Counted from the first letter of the stretch, positions 1-13,673 are shown. The stretch: DNA of 15,706 bases from Candidatus Babeliales bacterium (GCA_044451405.1 JBIOKB010000022.1:1-15706); one strand, 5' to 3'. A program made the numbers and translations. The notes: generated by a model not told the origin, from the sequence alone.

Positions 1-586
1 ATTTATAACTATCCCTTTCCATGCTGCAGAAAAAACAAAAAGAAAAAATACTCCAAGAAAAATAGCCCCTGTATCACAGAAAAAAAAATTTAAACCTACT
101 CCTACTACACCACCGTTAACTCCCACTTCCGCCCCTTCCCATACCCTCGATGAAATTTTTACTCCAACTCTCATTTCTCAAATGGCTCAATCAAATCAAG
201 AACAAATTTTACGCCTCTTAACACAGGCACTCTTTGCTCAACAACAACAAGCATCACTACGAATTACTAAGCTTGAAGAACAAATGTTACAGGAAAGAGA
301 AAAGCACAAAAAACATACAGAAGAACTTGAAAGCCGAATCACCATTTTAGCACAACAATTTGATGGACAGGCAACAACATTACAAGATCACACACATGCA
401 CTTACAGCGCTTACAACAGCCTGTACTGAACACAGAGAAACTATCGATTATACTTCAGATCAACTAGTTGATTTTGCAGTGGCAACTGCCTCGAATATAG
501 CAGCACTTTCAAGAGGGCTAACACAGGAGCAAGCTCTTAGGGGGACTGATCCTATTATGACTCTATCTTTTGATGAGCAAGAATAA
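1..586 (+). CDS. 5'-truncated secreted coiled-coil protein with bipartite NLS-like motif (paralog of next gene)
   Basis: The frame of ORF 182..586 is open back to position 2 (FITIPFHAAEKTKRKNTPRKIAPVSQKKKFKPTPTTPP...), so the true start lies upstream of the window. It shows the end of a signal peptide, a basic motif, a Pro/Thr linker and a heptad-rich helical C-terminal region. Confidence 0.75.
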   Translation, partial: FITIPFHAAEKTKRKNTPRKIAPVSQKKKFKPTPTTPPLTPTSAPSHTLDEIFTPTLISQMAQSNQEQILRLLTQALFAQQQQASLRITKLEEQMLQEREKHKKHTEELESRITILAQQFDGQATTLQDHTHALTALTTACTEHRETIDYTSDQLVDFAVATASNIAALSRGLTQEQALRGTDPIMTLSFDEQE

Positions 587-645
587 AAAGCCTTTTATTG
601 CGTTCTTTTTTACTTCAAGAATATTCTTATGATAAGGAGGATGCT

Positions 646-1284
646 ATGAAAAAACTATGTATCGTACTACTATTTATTGCAGTAATTATAGATGCCGGAG
701 AACAAGCATCTAGTCCAAAAAGAAAGCTTGCTGATCCAGAAGAAAATCCCGTACCCACCACTACCACAAAGAAATTTAAACCTACAGAAACATTCCCGCC
801 TTCTCCTCTATTTCTTCCTTCACTAATCCCTCCTGCCATTTCTAACCCATTACTTGCTCAATCATCGACTCCTTCTTTAGAGACTCTTGCACTCCAACAG
901 AAATGGGCAACTGTATTACACCGTGACCAAATCATGCTCAATGAAAATATGATGGATGCCCACAATTCATTGAAATTGCATGTTTCGAGTTACACAGACA
1001 AAGTGGACACTCTTTTAAAAACTGTTGGCGATATAACCAAAAAAGTCGATGATACAAGCAAAAAAGTTGACGATATAATCAGCAACACACAAACACAAAC
1101 AATAACGCTCCTCCAGCTAATCGTTGCTCTGGGGGAAGATTATGACCGAAGGCAAGAGACAGCGAAAAAACAAGAAGAAGAAATAAAAGCCCTCGCTGAA
1201 AAAATTAAAGATCTTTCTAAACAAGTAGCCTCAATGTCAGCTGATCATGGAAAAATATTTAAACAAGACGAATGGGATTTATAA
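646..1284 (+). CDS. Secreted coiled-coil protein with signal peptide and bipartite NLS-like motif
   Basis: Strong RBS AAGGAGG (634-640) before ATG 646. The protein has a MKKLCIVLLFIAVIIDA signal peptide, then KRK...KKFKPT (shared with the upstream gene), a Pro-rich linker and a coiled-coil C-terminus. Confidence 0.8.
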   Translation: MKKLCIVLLFIAVIIDAGEQASSPKRKLADPEENPVPTTTTKKFKPTETFPPSPLFLPSLIPPAISNPLLAQSSTPSLETLALQQKWATVLHRDQIMLNENMMDAHNSLKLHVSSYTDKVDTLLKTVGDITKKVDDTSKKVDDIISNTQTQTITLLQLIVALGEDYDRRQETAKKQEEEIKALAEKIKDLSKQVASMSADHGKIFKQDEWDL

Positions 1285-1324
1285 TTTTGATAAAATGTGC
1301 GGGATCCAGTAAAGCTTGCTCTAT

Positions 1325-12568: not shown

Positions 12569-12596
12569 ATAGTAACAATAAATAGGGATTGGTCAA
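12569..12596 (-). promoter_or_regulatory. Putative promoter of the 11147-12526 ankyrin gene
   Basis: Minus strand TTGACC (12591-12596), 16 nt, TACTAT (12569-12574), overlapped by the palindrome ATTACT-AAT-AGTAAC. Confidence 0.5.
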
Positions 12597-12713
12597 GTGG
12601 TTCCTCCTACGCCTATCCATGCCTACTGGCTTGGCAGGCTTCCCCCTACGTCAATCCAGGTCATCAGACTTGGCTGGCTTCGGCGGACACGACGGCGGAC
12701 AAGAGGGTGGTTC
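12597..12713. repeat. GC-rich REP/MITE-like palindromic insertion flanked by 7-bp direct repeats
   Basis: GTGGTTC at 12597-12603 and 12707-12713. Internal CCTACG occurs twice and CGGCGGACA twice (12681, 12693). GC content is well above that of the surrounding intergenic DNA. Confidence 0.55.
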
Positions 12714-12731
12714 AAATGCCTGGTTTTCCCT

Positions 12732-13673
12732 TTATTCCTGATCTAAGCCAAGTACACTGGTACCAAATGGTGTATCTGTATTTGCAGATGCGCTTGAAAC
12801 ATCAGCGTCTGGCATTTCAAGGGTTAAAGATCTTGGCTCTTGAGATGGCGCTGCGATGCTTACCAAATATCCTGCTATGATTGAAGATGGATCTGCCCAT
12901 TTACTACTATAGCATCCGAGTGTTGTTCTTATTATATGAGGGGCTTGTTGTCGATACGTTAATTGTTCTTGAATTGCGTCTAAGAGTTGTTGACTTGTAG
13001 TGCAGGTACGGCAGGTATGGCTTACTCCGCAATTCTCACAGATATCGCCACGAACACCAAAGTGATCACACGGTGTTTGTAATAGAGTAATAACAGTATC
13101 GTTATTTTCATTAATAAGGGTGGTATCTGTCCCACTTTCCATAAGTAGTTTTGCTGTAGAAATAATTTTTTTGAAATGTTTTGTTTGTGAACCAACAAAA
13201 CTCCCAGGAAGATCATCTTCTGGATCGCCATAATCCTCACAATACCAAAGAGAGGCCATAAGGAGTAATGGTGTCATGCCTTCAGCGTTTTGAGTATTAA
13301 CATGACTTCCATGTTTGATTAATGTTTTAACGCTATCAAGGTTGTAGCGAATAGCACAAAAAAGAGGTGTCTCTCCTCCTCTGTCTTGAGCATTAACATT
13401 GGCTTTTATGTTAATGAGTTTTTCTACAAGCCCGTTATTATCTTGCTCACGTATGACCTTCAAAAGTTTGTCAGTAAAAATTTTTTCAGTTAGAGCAGCG
13501 CTTTCTTTTTCGCTTTCTTTGGCGCATAAAATAGGGCCGCCTGTCTTTAATTTTTTATATATATCCGGTAGAGCAAGCTCTGCAGTAAGAGCAGATCGTT
13601 TTGCGGGAAGGTCCATACAGATTGTACTTGAGGAGATAAGGCTTACTATAACGATACAAAAGAGTTTTTTCAT
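12732..13673 (-). CDS. Secreted ankyrin-repeat protein with bipartite NLS-like motif and Cys/His-rich segment (paralog of downstream gene)
   Basis: Signal peptide MKKLFCIVIVSLISSSTIC|MD, KRSALTAELALPDIYKKLK, ANK repeats (ANVNAQDRGGETPLFCA, GSHVNTQNAEGMTPLL). The C-terminal tail is shared with the neighbour (...SLTLEMPD...FGT.VLGLDQE). Confidence 0.9.
   Translation of the reverse strand: MKKLFCIVIVSLISSSTICMDLPAKRSALTAELALPDIYKKLKTGGPILCAKESEKESAALTEKIFTDKLLKVIREQDNNGLVEKLINIKANVNAQDRGGETPLFCAIRYNLDSVKTLIKHGSHVNTQNAEGMTPLLLMASLWYCEDYGDPEDDLPGSFVGSQTKHFKKIISTAKLLMESGTDTTLINENNDTVITLLQTPCDHFGVRGDICENCGVSHTCRTCTTSQQLLDAIQEQLTYRQQAPHIIRTTLGCYSSKWADPSSIIAGYLVSIAAPSQEPRSLTLEMPDADVSSASANTDTPFGTSVLGLDQE

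Follow-up and report, generated by a model that had tools for sequence, protein, structure and literature searches.

Candidate nucleus-directed effectors with bipartite basic motifs behind Sec leaders in a Dependentiae genome

Bacterial effectors directed to the host nucleus, the nucleomodulins, are well established (PMC7819608, PMC7232420), and we compare with them four exported proteins, P1 to P4, whose genes lie in a window of 15,706 nt that is the entire contig C22 of the source genome G000, and each of which carries a pair of basic clusters shortly behind its signal peptide. Judged from their sequences, P1 to P4 may be regarded as credible new nucleomodulin candidates in a phylum, the Dependentiae, where nucleomodulins are not described; the subset with a putative nuclear tag is the new element. 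The nearest functional analogue is LntA of Listeria monocytogenes, a small, helical, Sec-secreted protein with a signal peptide, whose target is BAHD1. The basic stretch of LntA, as given in PMC13311002 (...KRSSEASADTEAFKKIFK...), has the form KR-x11-KKxFK and a shape like the KRSA..KKAK and ..KKFK strings found here; the likeness is one of motif shape, and we claim no homology. Because Listeria is Gram-positive and lives free in the cytosol, Sec export alone suffices for LntA, whereas P1 to P4 must cross an outer membrane too.

By domain, the nearest systems are the ankyrin effectors with which obligate intracellular Rickettsiales act in the host nucleus, Anaplasma AnkA, Orientia Ank13, Ank1 and Ank6, and Ehrlichia Ank200 (PMC7819608, PMC8406279, PMC9204287). 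These differ from the proteins described here in their use of type I or type IV secretion and in having no cleavable leader. The Orientia Anks, moreover, end in an F-box, whereas the C-terminal domain of P3 and P4 (120–126 residues) matches 0 Pfam families at E<=10; an F-box or PRANC assignment was rejected, and an F-box-like resemblance seen by eye (W.D..II.GYL) is unsupported by Pfam. In the same phylum, ankyrin proteins of Chromulinavorax destructans and Babela massiliensis show the same layout of leader and ankyrin repeats, alongside parts of a type II secretion system (T2SS) with two gspD copies (PMC6561590, PMC4776705). The available text of these two papers mentions neither nuclear localisation signals (NLSs) nor zinc fingers, with 'zinc' occurring 0 times in that of PMC4776705, and a full-text literature search, supplementary tables aside, returned no paper on NLS-bearing or zinc-finger effectors in Dependentiae or Babeliales. 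The phylum is widespread, almost uncultured and composed of protist parasites whose manipulation of the host is essentially a blank; published work on it ends at many ankyrin proteins with signal peptides.

Layout, conservation and frequency of the basic motif

Each of P1 to P4 consists of a Sec leader, a low-complexity and probably disordered linker in which a KR pair is followed 12–15 residues on by KKxK, and an ankyrin or coiled-coil scaffold (Table 1). The initial annotation of the window had read this arrangement, together with acidic C-termini, as a candidate nucleus-targeting effector system, and translation returned exactly the four KR-x(12-15)-KKxK motifs that it had placed shortly after the signal peptides, as well as the C-termini FDEQE (P1), DEWDL (P2) and LDQE (both P3 and P4). 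All four motifs possess both clusters of the NLS type, an upstream KR pair and a downstream K(K/R)x(K/R) or K(K/R)(K/R), separated by linkers of 12 (P1), 13 (P3 and P4) and 15 residues (P2). Our own rule, based on Kyte-Doolittle hydrophobicity, gave the leaders MKKLCIVLLFIAVIIDAG, MKKQAILILASFLTLPMVG and MKKLFCIVIVSLISSSTIC, those of P2, P3 and P4 being MKK followed by a hydrophobic core; they show the features of Sec (type I) signals, namely a basic n-region, a hydrophobic core of 10–15 residues and small residues at -3/-1, while the leader of P1 is seen only in its homologue P0015.

Conservation is a stronger argument for the motif than its statistics. P0015, the sole match to P1 in a library of 1.84 billion proteins, is full-length and 62% identical (E 2.3e-52). 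It starts with the leader MNKVLCVFMLLITMPFYA, followed by AEKKRK, which indicates that P1 has a signal peptide as well, short of only the residues noted in Table 1. When P0015 (EKKRKNTPRKIVPASQIKKFKPTPVTPPLTP) is aligned with P1 (EKTKRKNTPRKIAPVSQKKKFKPTPTTPPLTP), 26 of 31 linker positions are identical (84%), compared with 80 of 154 (52%) elsewhere (Fisher p 0.0012), making the basic linker, which in P0015 takes the form KKRK..IKKFKPTP, the best-conserved segment of the two proteins. P1 and P2 show no similarity by BLASTP (E 41); aligned with each other, they agree at 13 of 36 linker positions (36%) versus 24 of 172 (14%) elsewhere (Fisher p 0.0034). In the three-way alignment of P0015, P1 and P2 the sole solid invariant block is K-K..P..KKFKPT..PP, with KKFKPT and the first basic pair kept throughout.

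For P4, a 51% identical homologue, P0002, was found in the assembly of a public run, in which the 3' end of the gene may be cut. It reads MD-VSIGKKRSATDAQLTESDKAVRK and has GKKRSATDA-x-KAVRK, with KAVRK as a relaxed second cluster, at the position of the P4 motif. All three proteins, P3, P4 and P0002, keep M-D and K-R-S-A unchanged, though the length of the surrounding linker differs by more than 20 residues, and each retains a second basic cluster 11–13 residues downstream. Both homologues, P0015 for P1 and P0002 for P4, have thus kept the basic clusters, a conservation whose absence would have told against the initial annotation. These identity figures suggest that the motif is under purifying selection. 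Because a supposedly disordered linker is here the best-conserved part of a fast-evolving protein, the basic linker is probably a functional linear motif, whose role we infer from its form.

The two scaffolds are indeed unrelated, one being coiled-coil and the other ankyrin, with no phmmer link between the pairs. The further claim that the system is modular did not survive, as no homologous leader is common to both families, and the KRK..KKFKPT and KRSAxTA..KKxK tags are analogous, not one module. No Pfam family reaches threshold for P1 or P2, whose linkers are rich in P and T. Among 5.8 billion proteins P2 matched only itself, and in 40 relatives it has no orthologue (one marginal match, E 0.009); a profile of P0015, P1 and P2 gave only four marginal matches in 260 other genomes (E 0.002–0.007), and an ESM Atlas look-up with P2 just generic long-helix look-alikes (TM <=0.52). 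P3 and P4 are paralogues (phmmer E 3.9e-30) with Pfam Ank matches (reference families PF00023, PF12796 and PF13637; E 2.6e-11 and 1.1e-07, respectively; for P4 also Ank_4, E 4.8e-11) that exceed the curated cut-offs (43.6 bits against 21.1 for P3, 43.1 against 22.7 for Ank_4 in P4). P4 matches 30 of 40 relatives solely via its ankyrin repeats, P3 has no relative in the 5.8-billion-protein set except one ankyrin-only match, and the C-terminal domain and tail of the pair are an orphan, matched convincingly by none of 260 further genomes of the order. In an AlphaFold2 model of P4 built on a 3-sequence alignment (mean pLDDT 56), only the ankyrin core is confident, its blocks at residues 61–140 and 161–200 reaching pLDDT 68–87, interrupted by 38–48 at 141–160, and residues 1–57 (leader and motif) and 271–313 (tail) stay below 50. 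The model is weakly consistent with the P4 motif sitting in an unstructured, exposed segment, as a linear motif should.

For motif counts, 1096 open reading frames (ORFs) were called crudely in G000 and sorted by our hydrophobicity rule into 234 exported, 249 membrane and 613 cytoplasmic products. Across this proteome, 13 proteins contain KR.{10,16}KK.K, a number attained by 0 of 200 whole-protein shuffles (3.25 ± 1.71). When the count is restricted to the 72 residues that follow the leader, the pattern is present in 5 of the 214 exported proteins that have at least 100 aa, versus 0.16 ± 0.40 (0 of 1000 shuffles), and equivalent cytoplasmic regions have it once in 453 (0.61 expected). The five matches are P2, P3, P4, one zinc-finger protein and one LigD 3'-phosphoesterase, a count that omits P1 and a second zinc-finger gene, both cut by contig ends; taken as three families, they still yield a Poisson p of 6e-4. 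A cluster of at least four K/R in six residues follows the leader in 31 of 214 exported proteins versus 20.2 ± 3.7 (0 of 300 shuffles), without excess among cytoplasmic (43 of 453 versus 40.0) or membrane controls (12 of 214 versus 10.0), and the loose pattern (K/R)2-x10-16-(3 of 5 K/R) in 14 of 214 versus 7.8 ± 2.3 (2 of 200). The excess is real in G000, yet a few families account for it, and it does not hold for the phylum in bulk.

Zinc-finger proteins and tags in other genera

A genome-wide scan of G000 found five tandem paralogous zinc-finger genes (loci L001 and L002; Table 1) at the ends of two contigs, C25 and C68, which abut, since one of the genes spans both ends. Common to their products is the leader MKT..TN.TLL..LCA..MSSAMEE, behind which lie a linker and a basic cluster (TKKRN-x-KKRK, KKGTKRKRG, KKERKRKRSSEK, RTKRKREEDDK or KRKFDGDKKTNVKKEK), directly after which come 2–7 Krueppel-type C2H2 fingers joined by eukaryote-type linkers, HTGE(K/R)P(F/Y)KC (zf-C2H2 E down to 7e-30); the tails are P/S/H-rich and end in (P)EDGNL. 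Of the 261 Dependentiae genomes searched, 81 match PF00096 (59 over the curated cut-off; 49 of 145 genera), compared with only 1 of 14 controls. We surveyed the top-scoring loci from 22 Dependentiae genomes for N-complete proteins with at least two fingers, and 43 of 48 have a hydrophobic leader. Between leader and finger 1, a cluster of at least four basic residues in six is present in 23 of these 43 versus 2.6 ± 1.4 in shuffles (0 of 500), and the bipartite pattern in 10 versus 0.9 expected, counts that are inflated by paralogues: the cluster-bearing proteins come from nine of the 22 genomes and from none of the other 13, and in one genome (R/K)KR-x14-K(R/K)QKK stands directly before finger 1 of seven paralogues.

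The zinc-finger proteins are a third, unrelated scaffold with the same layout and provide independent support. Eukaryote-type DNA-binding fingers that are exported by a signal peptide would most naturally be bound for the host nucleus, which in turn makes the same reading of the tag on P1 to P4 more credible. For this family, though not for P1 to P4, the comparison to be drawn is with the transcription activator-like (TAL) effectors of Xanthomonas and Ralstonia. TAL effectors carry an NLS and an acidic activation domain. They enter the nucleus, bind DNA sequence-specifically by a tandem repeat array and drive transcription (PMC7819608), to which the order of leader, basic cluster, finger array and acidic or hydrophobic tail is analogous; they differ in their fold (TAL repeats versus C2H2), in type III secretion and in their plant hosts. 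In the available text of the 2021 nucleomodulin review (PMC7819608), zinc fingers appear only for host proteins and for a MYND-binding domain.

By eye, the tails of the ankyrin and zinc-finger families resemble one another, with SLTLEMPD, SLSMPD, SLSMPNEN or LLPMPDE, then FG.. and an acidic end, and a post-hoc regular expression, SL(T/S)(L)xMPD plus FG and an acidic end, picks out six proteins, all from these two families. In other genera, the C-termini of zinc-finger proteins read ..LFE(N/D)..acidic. Such strings may represent a shared linear motif or activation-like tails. A C-terminal module common to the two families was rejected, as phmmer against the 80-residue tails of all proteins gave reciprocal but not significant matches (E 2.5–8). 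A further eukaryote-type domain behind a signal peptide is the RING-like C3HC4 finger encoded at C45:268-1026 (L200; PF13920, E 2.5e-4, under the curated cut-off).

In a related genome, G009, the post-leader tags of ankyrin-type and zinc-finger proteins read INSM-KRSLEETNVTENPLKKIK, KSM-KRLRDLNINTHTKKHR and SAM-KRSFEGNQSRELKRMK, with shapes such as INSM-KRSLEE..KKIK and SAM-KRSFEG..KRMK. In another, G017 (loci L015 and L025), an ankyrin protein (..LQAM-EKKRPFEEQE) and a zinc-finger protein (..AFSM-EKKRPLETKRD) have the same basic start behind their leaders, which hints at an exchange of leader plus tag between scaffolds in that lineage. In about a fifth of exported proteins, 41 of 214 in G000 and 54 of 267 in G009, the leader ends with a methionine that directly precedes the first charged residue, the background being 7% (..YAM-D, SSAM-EE, ICM-D and INSM-KR are examples), and P3, P4, P0002 and all zinc-finger paralogues obey this pattern. 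The mature protein would start with this methionine, or an internal start would be used. With the two genomes pooled, bipartite motifs follow 11 of 95 such leaders and 18 of 386 others (Fisher p 0.016); taken singly, the genomes show only a weak trend (p 0.15 and 0.089).

Export route and competing explanations

Sec export of the four proteins, as initially annotated, is borne out by the leaders on P2 to P4 and, via P0015, on P1. Beyond Sec leaders, G000 has two secretins and a T2SS- or type IV pilus-type ATPase, while VirB4 and FHIPEP gave no match in this 95.7%-complete genome. All TM6 genomes have T2SS components with two gspD copies (Yeoh et al., PMC4776705). In Chromulinavorax, signal peptides occur on 44% of coding sequences and on 78% of 98 ankyrin proteins (Deeg et al., PMC6561590), the former being the same percentage as that of ORFs with a leader or membrane segment in G000 (483 of 1096, 44%); its cell sits in the host cytoplasm and buds vesicles, and as infection reaches a late stage the nucleus of the host breaks down (PMC6561590). 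Delivery into the host cytoplasm by a Sec-plus-secretin pathway or by vesicles is thus plausible.

In the mechanism that we propose, Sec would carry P1 to P4 over the inner membrane, with removal of the leader, and type-II-like secretin machinery or outer-membrane vesicles would free them into the host cytoplasm. There, host importin-alpha would read the exposed basic pair as a classical bipartite NLS, after which the ankyrin or coiled-coil part would engage a nuclear target; the C2H2 zinc-finger proteins of G000 may take the same route to host DNA. That P1 to P4 are host-directed, nucleus-targeted effectors with an importin-type NLS, import being judged from the motif, is a reading that we consider evenly poised. 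Of the nucleomodulin system as first annotated, the motif excess in G000, the conservation, the export route and, in addition, the third scaffold speak for it; its modular and genome-wide character and its acidic tail have fallen away. More tentatively, and with doubts outweighing confidence, the families could be united in a Dependentiae Sec/type-II 'nuclear toolkit' of leader-bearing ankyrin, coiled-coil and C2H2 effectors with importin-alpha-type tags, some with acidic or hydrophobic tails, that would act as transcription-factor mimics in the protist nucleus. The tandem C2H2 proteins would be its most striking members, a zinc-finger parallel to the TAL effectors. The zinc-finger arrays make this wider hypothesis worth following. 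If it is true, a short conserved tag would split a secretome of ~44% of ORFs into testable classes by marking its nucleus-bound members, secreted C2H2 arrays would give bacteria a DNA-targeting effector of a new kind, one that might be programmed much as TAL effectors are, and a plain Sec/type-II route would suffice to deliver nucleus-directed proteins from a diderm bacterium.

A number of observations weigh against nuclear import by an importin-type NLS. Only the linker of P1 stays within the classical 10–12 residues quoted in PMC13311002, those of the other three proteins (13, 13 and 15) being longer. A tolerance of longer linkers was reportedly described by Lange and colleagues in 2010. NLS-like strings are common in bacteria, ordinary pathogens having ~90–210 NLStradamus positives per genome (PMC13311002). 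AnkA and Ank13 are imported by importin-beta/RanGTP or RaDAR and not through a classical bipartite NLS (PMC8406279, PMC9204287); the RaDAR route, whose substrates carry L/I/F/C as residue 13 in a single repeat or in two successive ones, takes ankyrin effectors into nuclei without one (PMC8406279). The strict pattern was defined from the window proteins themselves, and outside the window its post-leader matches come down to one family, the zinc-finger proteins, with a probability of 0.15 for at least one such match by chance; the LigD 3'-phosphoesterase (PF13298, E 4.6e-45) has a 'leader' that is probably an upstream extension, making its signal-peptide call doubtful. Looser definitions reach merely a 1.5–1.8-fold excess, a periplasmic Cache-domain protein of G000 fits the loose pattern too, and conservation rests on one homologue per family. 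The replicate G009, a single-contig genome picked for completeness, of which 1.2 Mb (98%) were scanned by the same pipeline as 60 separate 20-kb pieces, with loss of the genes crossing piece ends, showed no significant excess in strict matches (1 versus 0.22; 38 of 200 shuffles), loose matches (15 versus 11.1; 29 of 200) or clusters (36 versus 29.0; 18 of 200). The comparison with shuffled and cytoplasmic controls that the initial annotation had called for thus came out in its favour in G000 but not in G009, and its 'genome-wide class' was an overstatement for what is a handful of proteins. The route, finally, would meet a further hurdle if the species is vacuolar, as a type-II substrate would then have a vacuolar membrane to cross.

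Some of these points would sit better with a basic linker that is selected and functional but is no nuclear-import signal, for instance an address for translocation across the outer or a host membrane, positioned like the RxLR motif of oomycetes or the PEXEL motif of Plasmodium, a site of processing at dibasic residues, or a patch for acidic lipids, nucleic acid or a host protein. The linkers beyond the classical range fit such a role, as do, in several lineages, the very short distance between the first cluster and the predicted cleavage site (M-KRS.., M-EKKRP..), the linkage to the lineage-specific methionine pattern in the pooled genomes, and the conservation of KKFKPT past the needs of an NLS, with F, P and T invariant too. 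A general secretion signal is impossible, given how small a share of exported proteins, a few per cent, bears the tag; because three other leader-bearing products of the window have no basic motif, it is no general property of exported proteins there either. Type II secretion signals are, besides, generally regarded as conformational and not linear, the distance from tag to leader ranges from 4 to 45 residues, and the occurrence of the tag next to C2H2 DNA-binding arrays speaks for the nucleus. We consider a role outside nuclear import rather unlikely, though of some weight. An origin in chance and composition, whereby a small genome that leans to AT would have disordered linkers rich in lysine, duplicated in two tandem pairs of paralogues and singled out post hoc, appears improbable to us. 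K+R make up 12% of the post-leader regions of G000, the loose bipartite pattern is found in 14 of 214 exported and 19 of 453 cytoplasmic N-regions, and the window holds at most two independent events, as P1/P2 and P3/P4 are neighbouring paralogues. The result in G009 points the same way, and the acidic C-terminus was rejected as a mark of the class, contrary to the initial annotation: at least three D/E among the last six residues are found in 4 of 205 exported, 4 of 207 membrane and 11 of 480 cytoplasmic proteins, without enrichment in exported ones. Chance does not, however, account well for the strict pattern behind leaders, with its low Poisson p even for three families, for motif blocks that are better conserved than any other part of proteins which otherwise diverge fast, or for the recurrence of the layout on zinc-finger proteins in nine genomes.

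It is less probable still that P1 to P4 never reach the host and are periplasmic or surface proteins whose basic stretch touches the envelope. A signal peptide proves only inner-membrane export, most of the products with a leader or membrane segment in G000 surely do housekeeping, and the search for VirB4 and FHIPEP revealed no dedicated injection system. Yet the ankyrin repeats, Krueppel-type zinc fingers and RING-like finger behind these leaders have no obvious periplasmic role, and the families are lineage-specific, fast-evolving and effector-like. The literature on cultured Dependentiae, as represented by the available text of PMC6561590, likewise takes signal-bearing ankyrin proteins to be secreted effectors.

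The window and other features

Table 1. Coordinates of the features discussed (positions refer to the window unless a contig is named)
Feature	Position	Strand	Remarks
Window, entire contig C22 of G000			15,706 nt
P1, exported coiled-coil orphan	2..586	+	5'-truncated at contig end, ~10-11 residues missing
P1 motif KR-x12-KKKFK, KRKNTPRKIAPVSQKKKFK	38..94	+	fits classical KR-x10-12-K(K/R)(K/R)
P2, exported coiled-coil orphan, distant P1 paralogue	646..1284	+	signal peptide 646-699
P2 motif KR-x15-KKFK, KRKLADPEENPVPTTTTKKFK	718..780	+	translation
694-aa orphan, leader-bearing	3127-5211	-	basic motif absent
111-aa orphan, leader-bearing	6831-7166	+	basic motif absent
P3, exported ankyrin-repeat protein	11147..12538	-	likely start MKK at 12526; signal peptide 12470-12526
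P3 conserved C-terminal tail PKSLTLEMPD...FGTGVLGLDQE	11150..11254	-	near-identical to P4 tail
P3 motif KR-x13-KKAK, KRSAETAGISESETEKKAK	12347..12403	-	translation
P4, exported ankyrin-repeat protein	12732..13673	-	signal peptide 13617-13673
P4 conserved C-terminal tail PRSLTLEMPD...FGTSVLGLDQE	12735..12836	-	pLDDT <50
P4 motif KR-x13-KKLK, KRSALTAELALPDIYKKLK	13545..13601	-	within low-confidence, probably disordered N-terminal segment
C11 (clostripain-type) peptidase, leader-bearing	14369-15706	-	PF03415, E 2e-41; basic motif absent
Five tandem paralogous zinc-finger genes (L001, L002)	C25:3-3332 and C68:2-1224	- and +	found by genome-wide scan of G000
T2SS-type ATPase gene	C68:1281-2426		adjoins zinc-finger array

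G000 comprises 1,023,543 bp in 89 contigs at 40% GC. The NusA encoded in the window is 60–75% identical to that of metagenome-assembled genomes named Candidatus Dependentiae, Babeliales or Babeliaceae, and everything else listed falls below 40%, so that the organism, first guessed to be possibly a member of the Dependentiae, proved to be Dependentiae/Babeliales. Besides nusA, the contig carries aspS, infB and genes for endonuclease IV and uracil-DNA glycosylase; tRNA and Rfam scans across the window gave no match. Between nusA and the P3 gene, at 10750-11020, 10 of the 50 DnaA-box-like 9-mers of the genome (TTWTCCACM, either strand) lie inside 252 bp and face both orientations, and the cumulative GC skew of the window is minimal at 10–11 kb; this region is likely a replication origin.

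Elsewhere in G000, two leader-bearing ankyrin proteins with strongly basic post-leader stretches, C5:25177-27180 and C23:1585-2835 (..KPRRRSTGRTRHDVKRKTKKP.. and ..ERVGKKRPSP..), are additional candidates. At C67:2326-3069 and C23:14490-15524, a LigD-type 3'-phosphoesterase (PF13298) and an apparent ATP-dependent DNA ligase, recognised by eye only, are parts of end-joining repair within a 1-Mb parasite genome.

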